A stretch of DNA of 39,760 nt from a virus (IMGVR_UViG_2711768002_000014), one strand, 5' to 3'; shown: positions 1-38,900, counted from the stretch's first letter. Made by a program: numbers and translations. The notes: a model not told the origin generated them from the letters alone.

Positions 1-573
1 ATGTTTTGCGAAGAAAAAGTAGCTCAAATGGCTGCATACCTACTTCTTAAGCGAGGTGGGCGCATGGCATATCTGAAATTGATGAAGCTGCTCTATCTGT
101 CTAACCGCAAGTCGATTTTGAAGCATGGCAGGATGATCGGCGAAGATAGCCTTTACTCTATGAAATTTGGTCCAGTCATGTCGAATACGCTGAACTTGAT
201 TCGTGGTAAGGCTGAAGGTATTGGTGACTACTGGTACAACCTGATAGAGACGAACGGGCATGATGTGTTGTTGCGTTCAGATCCGAGGGAAATGGATGCA
301 GACGAGGTCTTTGATGAGTTGAGCCGTGCAGATATCCGGATTTTAGATGAAATCTATTCTCTGTATGGGCATATGAACCGATTTGATCTCGCAAACATGA
401 CGCATTTAGAAAGCGTTTGTCCAGAGTGGCACAATCCTGGCAATTCTCGTAAGCCTATAGACCTGAAAGAAATGCTGATCAGTGAGGGTAAAAGCGAGGA
501 TGAGGCTAATCGTATAATTGGCAAAATGGAAGAATCTCAGAAACTTAAGGAATTTTCTTTGCAATTATCATGA
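1..573 (+). CDS. Panacea-domain (DUF4065, GepA/SocA-like) phage-associated protein; putative antitoxin
   Basis: 190-aa ORF starting at window base 1; motifs AAYLLLKRGG, YLKLMKLLYL and FGPV resemble remembered DUF4065 signatures; stop overlaps the next ORF start (ATGA at 570-573). Confidence 0.5.
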   Translation: MFCEEKVAQMAAYLLLKRGGRMAYLKLMKLLYLSNRKSILKHGRMIGEDSLYSMKFGPVMSNTLNLIRGKAEGIGDYWYNLIETNGHDVLLRSDPREMDADEVFDELSRADIRILDEIYSLYGHMNRFDLANMTHLESVCPEWHNPGNSRKPIDLKEMLISEGKSEDEANRIIGKMEESQKLKEFSLQLS

Positions 574-1567: not shown

Positions 1568-2362
1568 TTACTTATTCATTTCAATAATATTATTTTCTAT
1601 CATTGATTTATTTAAAACCAAAGAAGGAGCAAGATGGTTGTCTATTTTAAACAATGCATAACTTTTAAACTGTTGGTGATATCCGTAACTAATAAGGATG
1701 CTAGAAAAATCTCTTAATTCATCTTCTTTTAAAAAATTAAAATGAAATGGGTTGTCACCATTTATGAACAATGAAACATCTATTATGCAGTATTTCTCTC
1801 CGTTGTCATTTGCATAGAAAAAAATATAAGACATTCTGTTTGTTAAGACAATGCCATTAAATTTTCTTATGTCTGTAGCTATTTTGTTTTCCATGTTTGG
1901 TGCTACATATTTATTTTCAGAAATACATTTAATTTCATCTCCAGATGTCGTGATTATATAAAAATGAAACTTATCAGAAATATCTAACTTAACTACGCCA
2001 TCATTATTGTAAAGGCTGCTAAATTTTGGTGGTTCAACTTTTAAAGAATCATAGTTCTTTAAAAGAAGAGGGGAGTCAAATTTAATAACTTGTAGTATCC
2101 CTTTACCTTCAACCTCCATATTGATTGAAGATATAGCAATTGCATTATCTCTTTTATTATTCAGGATTATGGTTGATATATGCATGTCATATATTCTACT
2201 TGCATTTGCTGAATACGACACTGTCACCTTTTTTGATATTTTTTGCACGCCAAAATATATAGTGAAGGCAGCGGCAAGAATAGATAAGAATTTAATGTCA
2301 AATAAGGACCATAGCCACATTAGTTGCTCAATTGCTTCAGAGTTAATCATTTGCTTTACCAT
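1568..2362 (-). CDS. hypothetical membrane-anchored protein, AT-rich accessory gene
   Basis: Long ORF in a strongly AT-rich stretch (about 1560-2500); N-terminal hydrophobic segment WLWSLFDIKFLSILAAAFTIYFGV; start uncertain (ATGs at 2401, 2362, 2350). Confidence 0.5.
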   Translation of the reverse strand: MVKQMINSEAIEQLMWLWSLFDIKFLSILAAAFTIYFGVQKISKKVTVSYSANASRIYDMHISTIILNNKRDNAIAISSINMEVEGKGILQVIKFDSPLLLKNYDSLKVEPPKFSSLYNNDGVVKLDISDKFHFYIITTSGDEIKCISENKYVAPNMENKIATDIRKFNGIVLTNRMSYIFFYANDNGEKYCIIDVSLFINGDNPFHFNFLKEDELRDFSSILISYGYHQQFKSYALFKIDNHLAPSLVLNKSMIENNIIEMNK

Positions 2363-2538
2363 TATCGCTGTAATACAACACATGTGTGTATATATACGCA
2401 ATGCAATTATTTTGCAAGTGCTTCATTTACTATCAATAGCTACGTCACGTTATTGTTTAATGGTTCTTTATAGGGGCGGCAATAGTTAAAATTATCGCTT
2501 CCGTAAATGCCCCCGCAGGGGCATTTGCAGTAATGAAA

Positions 2539-3363
2539 TCAGGCGGTGAAAGTACCAATAAAGGTTTCTACTTTGCTGTCTTTGAATTTCTCAACAAGCA
2601 GATCACGAAATTCGTTAGCCATTTCTTCCTGTACCGCTTCCAGCTGAATAATGCGCAGAACCAGTACAGGACGATCGCCAGTGATAATGCTGAGGCGTAA
2701 TTTAAACGGACGTTCTTTCAGACCTTCAAACGGAACGCATTTAAATTCAAATGCCACTGGCATAATGTCTTTGGTCTTCGCTTCGACAGACTCCATCAGG
2801 GAGCGTTTGCCGCTGAAGTCATTATCTTCAAAATCAGCGGTCTGGTTCGCTTCAATTGTGATTTTACGGATCGCCGCAGCCGCTTTGGTTGCCTGAATGG
2901 CGTCACCATTAGCATCAAAGCCCACAAGGTAGTCGGCCCAGTCTTCAATCCATTCTGCCAGTGACTTCTGGGAGTTACGCTCGCCATTAACAGACAACAG
3001 AGCAGAGAACGGAGCTGTCTTTTTCAGTTTGAGAGTGGCGGTGTTATCTGCGTGACCTGGTTCATCAATAGTACCCAGGTTAAGAACACTGACGGCACGC
3101 ATATTATCAGCATCGATAAAGCAGCGGGTGCCTTCATCTGCAAGATCTTTAGAATAACGAGTAAAGTCATCGATGCTGGCAGTGGAAAGCGCACCACGGA
3201 AACGGAAACGATTTAAATTTAATTTTTCCAGATCATGAATGCGGAAATTCTCAGGCAATGCCACAGCATCGGCACCAATCTTACTGATAATTTCATTAAC
3301 ACCCTGAGCAGAAATAAGGGCATGGATTTGATTAATTGCGGTTGCGTCTAAGTTCTGAGACAT
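2539..3363 (-). CDS. YfdQ-like (DUF2303) conserved prophage protein
   Basis: 274-aa ORF, same length and gene-order context as remembered CPS-53 YfdQ; typical GC and codon usage. Confidence 0.55.
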
Positions 3364-3428
3364 AATAAGTCCTCACTATATAAAGATATTCAGTGATGAG
3401 ATAAATAATCGGTTAATTAAGAACGATA

Positions 3429-3791
3429 TTAATGACCTGCTGCGCGGAGTTTTCCGTCAGGTTCACCGGCAAGAGTCAGTAATTGTCCCTGGTCTTCCTG
3501 CAGAATAGTCAGGCGACCACCGCGATTGACATACATCGGCGTTTCGGTGGTGTCTTCTTCGGAAATTTTCCCGCGGTTAGTCGGGCGAACATATGAGAGT
3601 TTGTGTTTGATTTTCACACGGTTCTCATCAAATGGTTCGATTTCCAGGTTGAGTGAGACCTTACCTTTGGTTTTCGTGTTCATCACACCGGAAGCGACTT
3701 CACTGAGAACTGCGCCGATTTTGGTTTCAAATACGCCGCCGTCCAGCTCCCCAATAAATGCCTGCACATCAGTACTGCGTTCGCTAGCCAT
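3429..3791 (-). CDS. YfdP-like conserved prophage protein (120 aa)
   Basis: ATG at 3789-3791 (minus) preceded by AGGAG about 8 nt upstream; the N-terminal extension in the track ORF is Cys/Arg-rich and unlikely to be coding. Confidence 0.5.
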   Translation of the reverse strand: MASERSTDVQAFIGELDGGVFETKIGAVLSEVASGVMNTKTKGKVSLNLEIEPFDENRVKIKHKLSYVRPTNRGKISEEDTTETPMYVNRGGRLTILQEDQGQLLTLAGEPDGKLRAAGH

Positions 3792-11607: not shown

Positions 11608-12360
11608 ATGAACCTTGAAGCCTTACCAAAATATTACTCCCCAAAATCTCCAAAATTGAGCGATGACGCACCGGCGACAGGCTCAGGTGGTTTAACGATT
11701 ACGGATGTGATGGCTGCGCAGGGGATGGTGCAGTCGAAAGCACCGCTTGGGTTTGCCTTATTCCTGGCAAAAGTTGGTGTTCAGGATCCTCAATTTGCGA
11801 TTGAAGGTCTGCTCAATTACGCGATGGCACTGGATAACCCGACATTGAACAAATTGAGTGAAGAAACCCGGTTACAGATCATCCCTTACCTTGTGAATTT
11901 TGCCTTTGCTGATTATTCCAGGTCTGCGGCAAGTAAGGCTCGCTGTGAGCATTGTGCTGGTACTGGATTTCATAATGTATTGCGCGAAGTGGTGAAACAC
12001 TCCAGAAGCGGGGAATCTGTTATCAAGGAAGAGTGGGTGAAGGAACTATGTCAGCATTGCCATGGTAAGGGAGAAGTCAGCACAGCGTGCAGAGGGTGTA
12101 AGGGTAAAGGTATTGTCCTGGATGAAAAAAGAACCCGGCTTCATGGTGTGCCTGTTTATAAGATTTGTGGGCGTTGCAATGGCAACCGGTTTAGCCGTTT
12201 ACCAACCACACTGGCGCGGCATCATGTCCAGAAACTGGTACCGGACCTGACGGATTATCAGTGGTACAAAGGATATGCAGACGTTATTAATAAACTGGTT
12301 ACAAAGTGCTGGCAGGAAGAAGCGTATGCTGAATCGCAATTGAGAAAAGTGACAAGATAG
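11608..12360 (+). CDS. late-gene antiterminator Q (Qin QuuQ-like family)
   Basis: 250 aa; Cys-rich Zn-binding motifs (CEHCAGTG, CQHCHGKG, CRGCKGKG); GGAG upstream of ATG 11608; followed by a promoter and terminator. Confidence 0.75.
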   Translation: MNLEALPKYYSPKSPKLSDDAPATGSGGLTITDVMAAQGMVQSKAPLGFALFLAKVGVQDPQFAIEGLLNYAMALDNPTLNKLSEETRLQIIPYLVNFAFADYSRSAASKARCEHCAGTGFHNVLREVVKHSRSGESVIKEEWVKELCQHCHGKGEVSTACRGCKGKGIVLDEKRTRLHGVPVYKICGRCNGNRFSRLPTTLARHHVQKLVPDLTDYQWYKGYADVINKLVTKCWQEEAYAESQLRKVTR

Positions 12361-12391: not shown

Positions 12392-12420
12392 TTGCATTTT
12401 TCAAAAAATATGGATAAGAT
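12392..12420 (+). promoter_or_regulatory. candidate late promoter pR' (-35 TTGCAT, 17-nt spacer, -10 TAAGAT)
   Basis: Near-consensus sigma-70 hexamers about 30 bp downstream of Q and about 45 bp upstream of the terminator. Confidence 0.45.
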
Positions 12421-12463: not shown

Positions 12464-12490
12464 AAAAACCCGCCGCTGAGCGGGTTTTTT
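12464..12490 (+). terminator. tR'-like rho-independent terminator
   Basis: aaaaacccgccgctgagcgggtttttt: GC stem plus T6. Confidence 0.7.
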
Positions 12491-12639
12491 GTGCCTGATG
12501 TCTCATGAAACTATGAAATGGATTGGTGCGTTAAACATTTTTTCTTATTATCTTTTAGATTTTGGAGAGATGGTTAACGTCTGTATTCCAGAAACTCGAT
12601 GGTTATTTAATAAATTAGTTTCAATGATGCTTCTAGGTT

Positions 12640-13065
12640 ATGACTGTAATGAAAAAGGTATTAATAGCAGCGATAGGTTTTTGTTTAGTTGGTTGTGCAG
12701 GTATGAAATTACCTGAGTATTCGCAAGTTAAAGCAAGTCCGTATTATACAGATTGCCGTGCGTTTGCCATGGATGTTTATAAAAATGATGGATACAGCAA
12801 AATTGCGAAAACTACTATCCTTAGCATGGATGATGTGAAAGCTAGATATATTGTGACAGGGTGTGTAGTTGCTATGGGGAAAAACACTGTAGAGGAAATC
12901 AAAGCTGATCTCTCTGCTAAAGGGAGTTCTTTTGGGCTTATCAGTGGAGCTTGTTCTAGTGCGGCATGTCGGGTTGATGTAGAGCAGCAAATGAACGCTT
13001 ATGTACTTGGTAGTTATTATGCTGCAAATAAAAAATTCCCGGATAAAATGAAAGCAGAGTTTTAA
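12640..13065 (+). CDS. moron lipoprotein
   Basis: Signal peptide with lipobox (LVGC AG) after MKKVLIAAIGF; AT-rich island between two near-identical terminators. Confidence 0.6.
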   Translation: MTVMKKVLIAAIGFCLVGCAGMKLPEYSQVKASPYYTDCRAFAMDVYKNDGYSKIAKTTILSMDDVKARYIVTGCVVAMGKNTVEEIKADLSAKGSSFGLISGACSSAACRVDVEQQMNAYVLGSYYAANKKFPDKMKAEF

Positions 13066-13142
13066 GCAAACCTTGTTTTCGATTATATGTCGAAGATAAA
13101 TGTTAGTAACGGCATAATAAGTAAATATATAGCTGTGATAGC

Positions 13143-13166
13143 AACCCGCCACTGAGCGGGTTTTTT
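13143..13166 (+). terminator. rho-independent terminator (near-duplicate of tR')
   Basis: aacccgccactgagcgggtttttt; differs from the 12464 terminator by about one base in the stem. Confidence 0.65.
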
Positions 13167-13264
13167 GTACCCGTAAACTTGGTGCAGTACAGTAAACACG
13201 CTGGTGGTCGTGAATACTGACTTTTTATCTTGCTGGCTTTTTAGACAAGAGTTATTGGTATGTC

Positions 13265-13492
13265 ATGTTAACCAGAAGGGAAAAAGACATGCTAAAACAG
13301 CAAGATATGACAGAAACCGCCGCCGCAGTCCTTCATTTCTTACCTGCTGACAAGTGGGTAACGCCACGCATGATGACGAGAACTACCGGAGTAAGCGAAG
13401 CCCGGTGCCAGTTAATACTGACTCAGTTAGTTCTGGCGGGTCTGGCGAAGGATAACGGCGGGTACGGGAATAAATTCAGACGCTGCCAGTAA
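13265..13492 (+). CDS. small putative winged-helix DNA-binding protein
   Basis: 75-aa ORF (alternative ATG at 13289 with AAGGGA RBS); HTH-like segment TPRMMTRTTGVSEARCQLILTQLVLAGL. Confidence 0.4.
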   Translation: MLTRREKDMLKQQDMTETAAAVLHFLPADKWVTPRMMTRTTGVSEARCQLILTQLVLAGLAKDNGGYGNKFRRCQ

Positions 13493-13642: not shown

Positions 13643-14695
13643 ATGAAAAATACTGTAAAAATAAACAGTGTTGATTTAATCAACGCTGATTGCCTGCATT
13701 TTATTCAGTCCCTGCCTGATGATTCCATTGACCTGATTGTTACCGATCCGCCTTACTTCAAGGTGAAACCCAACGGTTGGGACAATCAGTGGAAAGGGGA
13801 CGAAGATTACCTTAAGTGGCTGGACCACTGTCTGGCCCAGTTCTGGCGGGTGTTGAAACCTGCCGGAAGCCTTTACCTGTTCTGTGGGCATCGCCTGGCA
13901 TCTGATATTGAGATCATGATGCGTGAACGTTTCAACGTGCTTAACCATATCATCTGGGCGAAGCCGTCCGGACGTTGGAATGGGTGTAATAAAGAAAGTC
14001 TGCGCGCATATTTTCCTGCCACAGAGCGCGTTCTGTTTGCTGAACATTACCAGGGGCCATATCGCGGCAAAAGTGACGGCTATGCGGCAAAAGAAAGGGA
14101 ACTCAAACAGCACATAATGGCACCGCTGATATCGTATTTCAGGGATGCTCGTGCCGAACTGGGTATAACGGCAAAACAAATTGCCGAAGCCACAGGTAAG
14201 AAAAATATGGTTTCCCACTGGTTTGGTGCCAGTCAGTGGCAGTTGCCGAATGAGGCTGACTATCGGAAGTTACAGGCACTGTTTTCCCGTATAGCGGCAG
14301 AGAAGTTTCAGGAACAACAACTGGAACAACCACACCACCAGCTGGTGGCATCTTATGATTCACTGAATCGTAAATATTCTGAATTGCTGGATGAGTTTAA
14401 ATCTCTCCGGCGCTATTTCTCCGTATCAGTCTCCGTGCCTTATACCGATGTCTGGATGCATAAACCCGTTCAGTTCTACCCGGGGAAACATCCGTGTGAG
14501 AAACCGGCGGATATGCTCAGGCAAATAATCAATGCCAGTAGTCGACCAGGTGATCTGGTTGCTGATTTTTTTATGGGATCCGGTTCCACAATAAAAGCAG
14601 CAATGGCGCTGGGGCGTCGGGCCTTAGGTGTTGAGCTTGAGTCAGAGCGGTTTAATCAGACAGTGAAAGAGATAAACGAGCTGGTGGGGAAATAA
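13643..14695 (+). CDS. orphan DNA methyltransferase (N6_N4_Mtase family)
   Basis: DPPY motif (IVTDPPYF) N-terminal and FxGSGS motif ([12 protein letters not shown]) C-terminal; no adjacent endonuclease ORF. Confidence 0.85.
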
Positions 14696-14701
14696 TCTGG
14701 T

Positions 14702-14723
14702 GGCCACGTCAGGTGGCCTTTTT
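14702..14723 (+). terminator. rho-independent terminator after the MTase
   Basis: ggccacgtcaggtggcc followed by ttttt. Confidence 0.5.
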
Positions 14724-14762
14724 ATTTCCATTACACAGCACCCGCATCTGCGAGGTGGGGTT

Positions 14763-14912
14763 ATGAAATCCATGGATAAGTTAACAACGGGTGTCGCCTA
14801 TGGCACCTCAGCAGGTAGTGCCGGGTACTGGTTTTTACAGTTGCTCGATAAAGTCACGCCCTCACAGTGGGCGGCAATAGGTGTGCTGGGTAGTCTGGTA
14901 TTTGGCTTGCTG
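14763..14912 (+). CDS. S: phage-21 S-type pinholin, 5' part only (interrupted by an assembly gap)
   Basis: [50 protein letters not shown] closely matches remembered S21; dual-start MKSMDK; 3' end lost in the N-run. Confidence 0.8.
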
Positions 14913-15135
14913 NNNNNNNNNNNNNNNNNNNNNNNNNNNNNNNNNNNNNNNNNNNNNNNNNNNNNNNNNNNNNNNNNNNNNNNNNNNNNNNNNNNNNNNN
15001 NNNNNNNNNNNNNNNNNNNNNNNNNNNNNNNNNNNNNNNNNNNNNNNNNNNNNNNNNNNNNNNNNNNNNNNNNNNNNNNNNNNNNNNNNNNNNNNNNNNN
15101 NNNNNNNNNNNNNNNNNNNNNNNNNNNNNNNNNNN
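14913..15135. other. assembly gap (223 N)
   Basis: Run of n. Confidence 1.
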
Positions 15136-15202
15136 TTAAGTCACTGACCGGAACAGATAAACCTGTCCGTGGGCAGAAACCGATAAATCCTGATAAATAT
15201 CC

Positions 15203-15736
15203 ATGAACGCAAAAATCAGATACGGCCTGTCGGCTGCCGTTCTGGCACTGATTGCCGTCGGTGCGCCCGCGCCTGATATTCTCGACCAGTTTCTGGATGA
15301 AAAAGAAGGTAACCACACAACGGCATACCGCGATGGGTCCGGCATCTGGACCATCTGTCGGGGTGCCACGATGGTGGATGGAAAACCCGTTTTTCCCGGT
15401 ATGAAACTGTCGAAGGAAAAATGCGACCAGGTCAACGCCATTGAGCGTGATAAGGCGCTGGCATGGGTGGAGCGCAATATTAAAGTACCACTGACCGAGC
15501 CACAAAAAGCGGGTATCGCGTCATTTTGTCCCTATAACATTGGCCCCGGTAAGTGTTTTCCGTCGACGTTTTATAAGCGGCTGAATGCTGGTGATCGTAA
15601 AGGTGCATGCGAGGCGATTCGCTGGTGGATAAAAGATGGTGGGCGCGATTGCCGCATACGTTCAAATAACTGCTATGGACAGGTTATTCGTCGTGACCAG
15701 GAAAGCGCATTAGCCTGTTGGGGGATAGATCAGTGA
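15203..15736 (+). CDS. R: SAR endolysin (T4-lysozyme-like)
   Basis: N-terminal SAR segment [18 protein letters not shown]; catalytic E-8-D-5-T arrangement ([16 protein letters not shown]). Confidence 0.85.
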
Positions 15737-29881: not shown

Positions 29882-30866
29882 ATGCAGGATATTCCACAGG
29901 AAACACATCATGAGACGACACGCCTCACTCAGTCAGCCCAGGTGGTGCTCTGGGAAATCGATCTGACAGAGGTCGGTGGAGAACGTTATTTTTTCTGTAA
30001 TGAGCAGAACGAAAAAGGTGAGCCGGTCACCTGGCAGGGGCGACAGTATCAGGCGTATCCCATTCAGGGGACGGGATTTGAACTGAACGGCAAGGGCAGT
30101 GCTGCCCGTCCGACACTGACGGTTNNNNNNNNNNNNNNNNNNNNNNNNNNNNNNNNNNNNNNNNNNNNNNNNNNNNNNNNNNNNNNNNNNNNNNNNNNNN
30201 NNNNNNNNNNNNNNNNNNNNNNNNNNNNNNNNNNNNNNNNNNNNNNNNNNNNNNNNNNNNNNNNNNNNNNNNNNNNNNNNNNNNNNNNNNNNNNNNNNNN
30301 NNNNNNNNNNNNNNNNNNNNNNNNNNNNNNNNNNNNNNNNNNNNNNNNNNNNNNNNNNNNNNNNNNNNNNNNNNNNNNNNNNNNNNNNNNNNNNNNNNNN
30401 NNNNNNNNNNNNNNNNNNNNNNNNNNNNNNNNNNNNNNNNNNNNNNNNNNNNNNNNNNNNNNNNNNNNNNNNNNNNNNNNNNNNNNNNNNNNNNNNNNNN
30501 NNNNNNNNNNNNNNNNNNNNNNNNNNNNNNNNNNNNNNNNNNNNNNNNNNNNNNNNNNNNNNNNNNNNNNNNNNNNNNNNNNNNNNNNNNNNNNNNNNNN
30601 NNNNNNNNNNNNNNNNNNNNNNNNNNNNNNNNNNNNNNNNNNNNNNNNNNNNNNNNNNNNNNNNNNNNNNNNNNNNNNNNNNNNNNNNNNNNNNNNNTCG
30701 CGGCGATGAGTGCGGTTATCACGGTCCGGCGGTCGCGGATGAATATGATCAGCCGACGTCCGATATCACGAAGGATAAATGCAGCAAATGCCTGAGCGGC
30801 TGTAAGTTTCGCAATAACGTCGGCAACTTTGGCGGCTTCCTTTCCATTAACAAACTTTCGCAGTAA
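29882..30866 (+). CDS. L: minor tail protein L (interrupted by an assembly gap)
   Basis: N-terminal 81 aa and C-terminal ~55 aa (RGDECGYHGPAVADEYDQPTSDITKDKCSKCLSGCKFRNNVGNFGGFLSINKLSQ) match remembered lambda L; middle replaced by N. Confidence 0.85.
30125..30697. other. assembly gap (573 N)
   Basis: Run of n; flanks do not preserve the L reading frame. Confidence 1.
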
Positions 30867-35975: not shown

Positions 35976-38900
35976 ATGGCAGTAAAGATTTCAGGTGTAC
36001 TGAAAGACGGCACAGGAAAACCGGTACAGAACTGCACAATCCAGCTGAAAGCAAAACGTAACAGCACCACGGTGGTGGTGAACACGCTGGCCTCAGAAAA
36101 TCCGGATGAAGCCGGGCGTTACAGCATGGACGTTGAGTACGGTCAGTACAGCGTTATTCTGTTGGTGGAAGGATTCCCGCCGTCACATGCCGGGACCATC
36201 ACCGTGTATGAAGATTCCCGACCCGGTACGCTGAATGATTTTCTCGGTGCCATGACGGAGGATGATGCCCGTCCTGAGGCACTGCGCCGCTTTGAACTGA
36301 TGGTGGAAGAGGTGGCGCGTAACGCGTCCGCGGTGGCACAGAACACGGCAGCCGCGAAGAAATCAGCCAGCGATGCCAGCACATCAGCCCGTGAGGCGGC
36401 AACCCGTGCGACTGATGCTGCAGGCTCAGCACGAGCAGCCAGCACGTCAGCCGGACAGGCCGCTTCGTCGGCTCAGTCTGCGTCTTCCAGCGCAGGAACG
36501 GCATCAGCAAAGGCCACTGAAGCATCAAAAAGTGCTGCCGCTGCAGAGTCCTCAAAAAGCGCGGCGGCCACCAGTGCCGGTGCGGCGAAAACGTCAGAAA
36601 CGAATGCGGCAGCGTCACAACAATCAGCTGCCACTTCTGCATCCACCGCGACCACGAAAGCGTCAGAAGCAGCCACCTCAGCCAGAGATGCGTCGGCTTC
36701 AAAAGAGGCGGCAAAATTATCAGAAACGAGCGCAGCTTCGAGCGCCAGTAATGCCGCTTCCTCGGCAACGGCGGCAGGAAATTCCGCGAAGGCGGCAAAG
36801 ACGTCTGAGACAAACGCTAAGTCCTCTGAAACGGCAGCAGCACAGAGTGCCTCCGCAGCAGCAGGCTCAAAAACAGCGGCTGCGTCGTCTGCCAGTGCAG
36901 CGTCAACAAGTGCCGGGCAGGCCTCAGCCAGTGCTAGCGCCGCCGGAAAATCGGCAGAAAGCGCCGCATCGTCCGCTTCAACAGCCACAACGAAGGCTGG
37001 CGAAGCCACTGAACAGGCCAGTGCAGCAGCGAGGTCTGCTTCCGCAGCGAAGACATCGGAGACGAACGCGAAAGCGTCGGAGACCAGCGCAGAATCCTCA
37101 AAAACGGCTGCCGCATCGTCCGCCAGTTCGGCGGCGTCATCGGCATCATCGGCGTCTGCTTCAAAAGATGAGGCGACCAGACAAGCGTCCGCAGCGAAGG
37201 GCAGCGCCACGACAGCATCCACGAAGGCGACAGAGGCTGCTGGCAGTGCGACGGCGGCAGCACAGAGCAAAAGTACGGCGGAATCCGCGGCAACGCGCGC
37301 CGAGACAGCAGCAAAACGGGCAGAGGATATTGCATCCGCCGTGGCGCTTGAGGATGCGAGCACGACGAAAAAGGGGATAGTACAGCTCAGTAGTGCGACT
37401 AATAGCACGTCTGAAACGCTGGCGGCAACGCCAAAGGCAGTAAAAGCAGCCAATGACAATGCTGAGAAACGTCTGCAGAAAGACCAGAACGGCGNNNNNN
37501 NNNNNNNNNNNNNNNNNNNNNNNNNNNNNNNNNNNNNNNNNNNNNNNNNNNNNNNNNNNNNNNNNNNNNNNNNNNNNNNNNNNNNNNNNNNNNNNNNNNN
37601 NNNNNNNNNNNNNNNNNNNNNNNNNNNNNNNNNNNNNNNNNNNNNNNNNNNNNNNNNNNNNNNNNNNNNNNNNNNNNNNNNNNNNNNNNNNNNNNNNNNN
37701 NNNNNNNNNNNNNNNNNNNNNNNNNNNNNNNNNNNNNNNNNNNNNNNNNNNNNNNNNNNNNNNNNNNNNNNNNNNNNNNNNNNNNNNNNNNNNNNNNNNN
37801 NNNNNNNNNNNNNNNNNNNNNNNNNNNNNNNNNNNNNNNNNNNNNNNNNNNNNNNNNNNNNNNNNNNNNNNNNNNNNNNNNNNNNNNNNNNNNNNNNNNN
37901 NNNNNNNNGAACAACATTAACGCGGTCAGTAAAACAGACTTTGCTGATAAGCGTGGTATGCGTTATGTGCGGGTTAACGCTCCTGCAGGTGCAACATCTG
38001 GAAAATATTACCCTGTTGTTGTTATGCGTTCTGCTGGCTCAGTAAGCGAACTGGCATCAAGGGTCATTATCACCACGGCAACGCGAATCGCAGGCGATCC
38101 GATGAATAACTGCGAGTTTAACGGATTTGTTATGCCTGGTGGCTGGACTGACAGGGGGCGTTATGCTTATGGAATGTTCTGGCAATATCAAAACAATGAA
38201 CGAGCCATCCACTCAATAATGATGAGTAATAAGGGCGATGATTTGCGCTCTGTGTTCTATGTTGATGGCGCTGCTTTCCCTGTTTTTGCGTTTCTCGAAG
38301 ATGGCCTGTCAATATCCGCACCTGGTGCTGATCTCGTTGTTAATGATACGACCTATAAGTTTGGGGCAACAAATCCGGCGACTGAATGTATCGCGGCGGA
38401 CGTTATCCTTGATTTTAAGAGTGGGCGTGGTTTTTATGAGTCTCATTCGTTAATCGTTAACGATAACTTGTCGTGCAAAAAACTTTTTGCCACAGACGAA
38501 ATTGTAGCGCGTGGTGGTAATCAGATTCGAATGATAGGTGGGGAGTATGGTGCATTATGGCGTAATGATGGCGCTAAAACTTACCTGCTGCTTACCAATC
38601 AAGGTGATGTTTATGGTGGCTGGAATACATTAAGACCGTTTGTTATTGATAACGCAACCGGCGAACTGGTTATTGGAACCAAACTGTCTGCAAGTCTGAA
38701 CGGTAACGCATTGACAGCAACAAAGCTGCAAACGCCAAGACTGGTTTCTGGTGTTGAGTTTGATGGTTCCAAAGATATTACTTTAACCGCCGCGCATGTG
38801 GCTGCTTTTGCCAGAAGGGCAACGGATACATATGCCGATGCGGATGGTGGCGTTCCATGGAATGCCGAATCAGGCGCTTACAATGTCACCCGCTCTGGCA

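Follow-up and report, generated by a model that had tools for sequence, protein, structure and literature searches.

A lipoprotein gene closed by a near-copy of the putative late terminator: a probable moron cassette downstream of Q in lambdoid prophages of E. coli

In the 39,760-nucleotide stretch of viral DNA analyzed here (IMGVR_UViG_2711768002_000014, referred to below as the window), a 647-bp AT-rich cassette encoding a small lipoprotein lies directly past the putative tR' terminator of an SfV/mEp460-type Q–pR' module and is closed by a second copy of that terminator. We consider the cassette to be most probably a classical moron in the sense defined by Juhala et al. 2000 (reviewed in PMC3594210). 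The first-pass annotation had described an AT-rich 141-aa lipoprotein ORF between two near-identical terminators of about 30 bp, and repeat search, folding, and ORF calling all bear this description out. The region runs in the order Q, promoter-like block, hairpin and T-run, AT-rich 141-aa ORF, second hairpin and T-run, small ORF, DNA methylase, and lysis genes, with the following features (window coordinates):

11608 to 12360, + strand: late antiterminator Q gene (PF03589 Antiterm, Pfam 6.9e-54, with a DnaJ-type zinc finger; longest ORF from 11566)
12392 to 12420, + strand: putative late promoter pR', TTGCAT-17-TAAGAT, read from the sequence
12464 to 12495, + strand: left repeat copy, putative tR' terminator (hairpin AAAAACCCGC/GCGGGTTTTT with U-run; equivalent site annotated as a terminator in SfV and Ayreon)
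12496 to 13142, + strand: cassette sequence between the repeats, 647 bp (676 bp when one repeat copy is counted), missing from SfV and 720R4 in the alignment
12523 to 12551, + strand: candidate cassette promoter, TTGGTG-17-TATTAT, weak and read from the sequence
12640 to 13065, + strand: lipoprotein gene, 141 aa (signal peptide, lipobox LVGC with Cys19 and Ala at +2, conserved Cys 39, 75, 105, and 110)
13143 to 13171, + strand: right repeat copy, terminator closing the cassette (repeat search, terminator scan, and folding)
13289 to 13492, + strand: small conserved late-region ORF (phrog_331; weak winged-helix/MarR-like match; longest ORF from 13265)
13643 to 14695, + strand: N6/N4 DNA methyltransferase (Pfam PF01555 2.2e-42, PADLOC MTase_II, annotation), with the late-operon holin and endolysin genes next

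The late-gene switch and the two terminator copies

The Q gene corresponds to a RefSeq CDS named 'antitermination protein' in the 100%-identical record of E. coli A14. The pR' block that follows it hardly varies among Ayreon, SfV, 720R4, and the Stx1 phage Lys8385Vzw, and falls below the threshold of a consensus promoter scan. The hairpin at 12464-12490 begins 104 nt past the Q stop (12360) and about 45–70 nt past the promoter-like site, and is thus placed as tR' should be, being a predicted intrinsic terminator shortly downstream of a promoter that follows Q; we refer to the left copy as the putative tR' of the Q module. In lambda, tR' terminates the 6S RNA, and StxS of Stx2 phages is likewise a short RNA ended at the late terminator. 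Lying past a promoter-like site just after Q, the left copy should similarly yield a short terminated leader RNA. An Rfam search at a permissive E-value matched no family to the left-copy leader; sub-threshold hits to Trp leader, Leu leader, and RNAI were rejected as terminator look-alikes.

A repeat search across the 39.76-kb window aligns the two copies as a 29-nt direct repeat (12467-12495, AACCCGCCGCTGAGCGGGTTTTTTGTGCC; 13143-13171, AACCCGCCACTGAGCGGGTTTTTTGTACC) that is identical at 27 of 29 positions, with a start-to-start spacing of 676 bp. Over the 24 nt of hairpin and T-run, 23 positions agree and the single difference is a loop base, which matches the earlier description of copies differing by about one base. 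When the repeat was written as a degenerate 29-mer and up to 3 mismatches were allowed, the only matches in the window were the two copies, and none of 100 dinucleotide shuffles contained a match. Folding gives each copy a G+C-rich hairpin followed by U6: a 10-bp stem of -13.9 kcal/mol on the left, and on the right a 46-nt stretch with an MFE of -13.3 kcal/mol that comprises a 7-bp terminator stem and a small upstream 4-bp helix. The three extra A's at the left start (12464) lengthen the left stem only, and with this A-run 5' of the hairpin the left copy is potentially bidirectional. A consensus terminator scan reported the right copy and not the left; the former, a predicted hairpin and T6 at 13143-13168, would supply the cassette with a factor-independent terminator of its own. 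Both terminators are annotated in the GenBank record of Ayreon.

Filled and empty sites among related prophages

Over the 1-kb region, the window matches a dusA-integrated prophage of E. coli A14 at 100% identity, and mEp460, Ayreon, PhiR47_1, one Stx2k phage, and fifteen Stx2c phages at 97%. SfV and vB_EcoM-720R4 share the DUF968–Q–pR' module with the window, and further on they likewise have the 75-aa ORF, the methylase, and the lysis genes; between the two blocks lies one terminator with no insert. The first gene past tR' in these empty-site phages is the ORF found here at 13289-13492. In the alignment, filled and empty genomes differ by exactly the cassette plus one repeat copy (676 bp), with identical flanks. 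The single terminator of SfV and 720R4 marks the cassette as a presence/absence element that was inserted or deleted at the putative tR', and the proposal that it was acquired by recombination at, or duplication of, tR' finds support in these two phages, the insert-free relatives with which comparison had been suggested. Along with this absence from otherwise collinear relatives goes a deviant composition: GC along the cassette is 0.32–0.43, versus about 0.5 on either side, and the lipoprotein ORF has a GC content of 38.3% (28% at GC3) versus 51.4% for the whole window. Judged on these features and on its predicted terminator, the cassette works like a lambdoid moron and shares these three hallmarks with it. 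As in HK97 gene 15 and lambda bor and lom, a gene with deviant GC and its own terminator is missing from collinear relatives and encodes an envelope protein within an otherwise conserved operon; unlike those genes, the cassette ends in a near-copy of tR' from the operon in which it lies, has a weakly predicted promoter, and encodes a protein of a family unrelated to Bor, Lom, and gp15.

The whole Q–terminator–gene–terminator unit is present in 214 of 5426 complete E. coli genomes. An empty-site query was covered over at least 80% in 425 of the 5426, a number that takes in cassette carriers, in which the search tool joined two pieces; subtracting the filled sites leaves roughly 210 true empty sites, as an estimate and not a count. 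Matches of other genomes to our query break off at window position 12490, where the left T-run ends (query position 191), or set in at 13143, the first base of the right hairpin (query position 844), which identifies both terminator copies as mosaic boundaries. The right copy is the 5' boundary of a widely shared downstream module (75-aa gene and methylase), with BLAST matches from hundreds of E. coli genomes beginning exactly there. Other neighbors occur at the same junctions: a tRNA-Met module is joined directly to the right T-run in an O111:H8 prophage, four tRNAs follow the terminator in PhiR47_1, and the terminator stands behind a different, short Q and a different leader in cdtI, PhiR40_1, and mEp460_4F5.

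A pR'-proximal moron site has been described in EHEC prophages (PMC4104026), and the interval between Q and the lysis genes had been proposed for our window as the hotspot at which stx sits in Stx phages. This placement holds: in an Stx1 phage with the same Q and pR', the same stem with another loop is followed by stx1AB, and in Stx2c and Stx2k phages the cassette lies upstream of stx2. The cassette thus resembles the stx operons and the EHEC inserts of PMC4104026 in being inserted directly past a Q-controlled pR'/tR', where a same-Q phage has stx1, and differs from stx operons in its small lipoprotein cargo and in coexisting, in Stx2c and Stx2k phages, with stx2 further downstream. Convergent sRNAs were reported at this kind of position by Tree et al. 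(PMC4104026). In our Rfam search no AsxR/AgvB-like sRNA was detected, and a match to the Salmonella sRNA STnc130 at window 13134-13270 (minus strand), covering the right terminator and the spacer ahead of the 75-aa ORF, was rejected at 26 bits against a gathering score of 55 and with no U-tail on that strand; given the precedent of PMC4104026, a diverged sRNA may conceivably lie there. In three stretches with a different, short Q (L009, L010, and L011), reverse-strand genes lie between Q and a pR'-like promoter: another lipoprotein gene of 149 aa with lipobox IISGC (L009 1930-2376, minus strand), two reverse ORFs (L010), and one of 309 aa (L011). These genes mark a second moron slot, on the Q-facing side of pR'.

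History of the repeat

The two-terminator layout recurs in a Salmonella prophage (L004). There, a lambda-type Q and a different leader precede the same hairpin; the leader and lipoprotein gene that come next are orthologous to those of the window (76% aa identity, dS about 1.8), and another terminator closes the unit. The layout is thus old and not tied to one kind of Q. The right terminator of L004 has the same stem with loop ATTGC, and the flank beyond it is related to the right flank of the window and runs into a truncated methylase. At L004 4479-4808, a deletion of the 75-aa ORF and the bulk of the methylase has left the last 110 methylase codons directly past the right terminator.

Similarity between copies continues beyond the T-run, as GTRCCYG in the window and GTAYCYGAAAC in L004, which argues for a real duplication over two unrelated terminators. 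Among IMG/VR contigs, the copies shuffle their diagnostic bases, with G, A, or C in the left loop and GTG or GTA in the tail. In L111 the right copy has a left-type tail, and L036 combines an empty site and the window-specific left flank with a hybrid tail, GTG followed by CCCGTAAAC, as would result from a crossover at the last shared repeat bases. These variants suggest repeated loss and conversion through homologous recombination of one copy with the other; the data give no direction, and L036 is equally well read as the ancestral target.

The hairpin itself is far from peculiar to this site. The exact 24-mer is found in at least 120 IMG/VR stretches, and sporadically in Pseudomonas, Nitrosomonas, and others; 46 of the 120 stretches listed lack homologues of all four module genes (Q, lipoprotein, 75-aa ORF, and methylase). 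The matches listed (loci L018-L137) represent about 40 unrelated contexts; sorted by flank, they fall into about 38 types upstream and about 43 downstream, and identity ends at the hairpin base and just past the T-run. When any 6-nt loop is allowed, the stem AACCCGC/GCGGGTT shows 75 loops in an unbiased sample of 119 sites, of which CACTGA is the commonest (9/119). Such counts indicate that the stem is a generic, very popular terminator design, whose widespread identity would partly reflect family abundance or convergence. Because the stem is very common in phages, identity between the copies is a weaker proof of local duplication than it first looks, and because it also occurs with many other loops, shared descent and convergence are inseparable here. 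It might then be argued that nothing was duplicated, and that the moron brought its own terminator from the same abundant family as tR', the near-identity being due to shared generic ancestry or later gene conversion. Speaking for this account are the many flank types and module-free occurrences of the 24-mer, the leading frequency of the CACTGA loop, and the different loop of the right terminator next to the Salmonella orthologue. We regard it as improbable, since the similarity between the copies reaches past the T-run and since the empty site has exactly one copy joined to the same flanks.

Terminators that border gene cassettes have a precedent in T4-type phages, where PeSLs, composite repeats of a strong promoter and a stem-loop, flank ORFans (PMC2839356, PMC4122927). 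The present arrangement is similar to the extent that short conserved terminator stem-loops flank ORFan genes and mark boundaries of insertion, deletion, or replacement; unlike in a PeSL, the repeat consists of stem-loop, T-run, and about 6 nt, and the phage is temperate. Because its repeat holds no promoter, the cassette is not a PeSL. By extension of that precedent (PMC2839356), the terminator copies could be recombination sites of a mobile cassette, with a 676-bp mini-circle reintegrating in phages that carry the same hairpin. The direct repeat–cassette–direct repeat structure, the single-copy empty sites, the hybrid and converted repeats of L036 and L111, and the presence of the same hairpin at many module junctions, including those that bracket small secreted-protein genes in Mu/P2-like baseplate regions, are all compatible with such an element. 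We nevertheless give it a low probability: the checked repeat pairs about 677 bp apart in our sample all enclose this one cassette, the repeat is promoterless, the lipoprotein family is also found without repeats, and ordinary homologous recombination explains the data. A transposon or integron was rejected on reading the sequence, in which we saw no transposase, integrase, or terminal inverted repeats, and a repeat of 29–36 nt is too long for a target-site duplication.

In the Mu/P2-like baseplate regions (L099, L044, L125, L059, and L128), the 24-mer and a sister hairpin lie 1.4–2.0 kb apart. The loop of the sister hairpin is CAATGT or CAATGC, and L099 has an identical copy (minus strand 2008-3436). 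These hairpin pairs bracket a 338-aa structural gene together with variable small signal-peptide or lipoprotein ORFs (108–233 aa), and so form further accessory slots.

The lipoprotein and its family

The signal peptide of the 141-aa product ends in a lipobox, MKKVLIAAIGFCLVG-C19, that conforms to the pattern [LVI][ASTVI][GAS]C. In an alignment of seven family sequences, G18, C19, C39, C75, C105, and C110 are invariant, as are the motifs SPYY..CR.FA..VYKNDGYSK and IV.GCVV.MGK, and the distant members P0015 and P0014 also have a lipobox-type G-C. A lipobox predicts processing by Lgt and LspA, and four conserved cysteines predict two periplasmic disulfides. In E. coli, a residue other than Asp at +2 directs a lipoprotein to the outer membrane; the +2 residue here is Ala, replaced by Ser or Val in relatives and never by Asp. 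We therefore predict an exported product, lipidated at Cys19, that is small, helical, disulfide-bonded, and periplasm-facing, and that is probably sorted to the outer membrane given the absence of Asp at +2. The mature domain is predicted to form a helical bundle, with a best AlphaFold model at pLDDT 90 and pTM 0.86; the other four of the five models are poor, as was a first model at pLDDT 61.

Might the ORF be a chance reading frame in an AT-rich spacer? A mirror ORF of 147 aa on the minus strand and the lack of any database family with a function could be taken that way. Pairwise dN/dS values of 0.08–0.18, at dS above 1 (saturated or near-saturated), and the invariance of the lipobox and cysteine pattern across homologues of 54%–76% identity from four genera are incompatible with it, and we consider a spurious ORF already refuted by the selection analysis: the low dN/dS together with the invariant G18/C19 and four cysteines argues that the gene is real. 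A different ORF of 75 aa at 12489-12716 (+ strand; phrog_37626), which overlaps the leader and gene start in another frame, was set aside as probably spurious; the annotations of Ayreon and PhiR47_1 list a portion of it as a hypothetical protein of 37 aa.

The protein family had been called unrecognized, and so it proved. Pfam, NCBIfam, and PADLOC searches with the window protein, and Pfam and PHROGs searches with 11 family members, returned nothing informative; in Pfam there was no family at E<=0.1 for the window protein or at E<=1 for the 11 members, so that the Bor profile, too, is unmatched. PHROGs matches are confined to families of unknown function, that of the window protein being phrog_4748. 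A PDB profile search gave chance matches only and a fold search no informative relative. Neither sequence, profile, nor fold similarity to Cor, Llp, Bor, or any exclusion or defense protein was detected with Pfam, NCBIfam, PHROGs, PADLOC, and the fold search, and since homology was looked for and not found, we do not count the protein as a Cor, Llp, or Bor family member. GenBank records annotate the ORF as hypothetical, and literature searches with the protein accessions and phrog_4748 found no discussion of it.

Deep searches returned 9 homologue clusters (word-indexed search) and 8 (exhaustive profile search of 1.84 billion representatives), which makes this a genuinely tiny family. Its members are confined to enterobacterial prophages and phage-plasmids and occupy three settings: past Q in lambdoid prophages of E. 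coli and Salmonella; in Salmonella Rac-like prophages, where they stand next to vapBC in the early-left region; and near replication genes in Klebsiella phage-plasmids of about 84–120 kb and a 111.5-kb Buttiauxella plasmid with the same gene neighborhood. The first-pass annotation would have given way to related phages carrying the gene without duplicated flanks and with a known housekeeping function; homologues without duplicated flanks do exist, in the Rac-like prophages and phage-plasmids, and none of them has such a function. In two of the Rac-like prophages (L007 3850-3900 and L006), a degraded remnant of a late-region terminator and leader, cacacaACCCCG...TTTTTTGCGCCTGAAC, lies upstream of the homologue, which suggests that the cassette moved to the early-left region from a Q-proximal site. 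In the Buttiauxella plasmid (L005 4446-4745) and a Klebsiella phage-plasmid (L016 3431-3730), a second small lipoprotein gene (99 aa, VLSGC) begins 10 bp past the homologue, and the two may form a two-gene unit.

Expression and possible roles

Under the moron reading, the left copy would stop the short constitutive pR' transcript in the lysogen, giving the short leader RNA, while the cassette's own weak promoter may drive the lipoprotein gene, with the right copy stopping that transcript ahead of the methylase and lysis genes. Upon induction, read-through of both copies by Q-modified RNA polymerase would make this a late-expressed gene as well. The direct repeat of about 30 nt would ease loss, gain, or conversion of the cassette by short-homology recombination, in line with the hybrid repeat variants and with a cassette present in roughly half of otherwise collinear prophages. 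The candidate promoter at 12523-12551 has 8 of the 12 consensus bases, and the sequence aligned with it in the Salmonella cassette of L004, which is roughly 75%-diverged, reads TTGGTA-18-TATCAT; a consensus promoter scan reported none upstream of the lipoprotein gene, so expression could be purely Q-dependent.

For the protein itself we offer a ranked guess: masking of a receptor or entry factor first, Bor-like host fitness second, and progeny protection or a lysis accessory role in the lytic phase third. Cor (phi80, N15, and mEp167) and Llp (T5) are small, non-essential phage lipoproteins that mask the receptor FhuA. As a small phage-encoded lipoprotein, the window protein finds in them its most plausible functional analogy; it differs in being about twice as long, helical, and equipped with two probable disulfides, with no detectable sequence or profile similarity. 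By this analogy, our tentative best guess is that the product masks an envelope receptor or entry factor, and so may confer superinfection exclusion, protect progeny from adsorbing to debris, or both.

Somewhat less probable, to our judgment, is that the product serves the lysogen in the manner of Bor/Iss, contributing to host fitness or virulence (through serum resistance, envelope robustness, or adhesion), and does not act in phage exclusion. The protein resembles lambda Bor in general class and size range, and the gene is widespread in human and animal E. coli, STEC prophages included; the prophage already has an Ail/Lom-family gene by gpJ, and no gene is annotated as cor in the stretches of the A14 prophage examined (by annotation only). 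The complete lack of Pfam and NCBIfam matches, and hence of one to Bor or Iss, weighs against such kinship. We think it rather unlikely that this is essentially a late-phase gene, transcribed mainly by Q-antiterminated polymerase, whose product has a lytic role, blocking the receptor on debris as does T5 Llp or modulating lysis or spanin function. Its position in the late operon between pR' and the lysis genes and the weakness of its own promoter would suit that role, and stx genes at the pR'-proximal site are indeed mainly pR'-driven; the homologues outside late operons (Rac-like early-left regions of Salmonella; beside replication genes in phage-plasmids) do not, nor does the presence of its own terminator, which an independently transcribed unit would require.

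A bolder proposal, to which we assign little probability, combines two claims: that the tR'-type hairpin AACCCGCC-RCTGA-GCGGGTTTTTT is a portable short-homology recombination site through which small envelope-protein cassettes are exchanged among enterobacterial phages, and that the lipoprotein is a receptor-masking exclusion factor of a new fold class. If true, the portable hairpin, which recurs in the late regions of lambdoid phages as well as in baseplate regions of the Mu/P2-like kind, would give temperate phages their counterpart of the T4 PeSLs. Given that the stem is generic, we keep the portable recombination site as a minority reading.

Prophage context and significance

The prophage begins with a Panacea-domain gene (window 1-573), has an Ail/Lom gene past gpJ, and, just beyond the window end (A14 record 376870-378769), carries a reverse-transcriptase and SLATT gene pair by the integrase at dusA; with these it holds several other accessory or defense-type loci. 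Runs of N totaling 1211 bases (14913-15135, 30125-30697, 35234, and 37495-37908) cover parts of the holin region, the tail genes, and the side tail fiber gene, and ORFs called across them, such as 14700-15206, are masking artifacts.

The layout described here is of a known kind and carries an orphan protein family; current understanding is not overturned, and the arrangement will not surprise a phage biologist. The cassette is common: about 4% of complete E. coli genomes have it, as do, in the phage collection, all 15 Stx2c phage records matched and the one matched Stx2k record (phiSTEC1575-Stx2k). Because it is placed downstream of the late promoter and ahead of the toxin and lysis genes, the added terminator and the lipoprotein would be part of the regulatory path that controls expression of Shiga toxin and lysis. 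With its clean filled and empty pairs and hybrid repeats, the site offers a well-documented natural example of how a terminator may serve as both insulator and recombination handle for morons, and the strongly conserved orphan family would be a cheap target for an exclusion or virulence screen.
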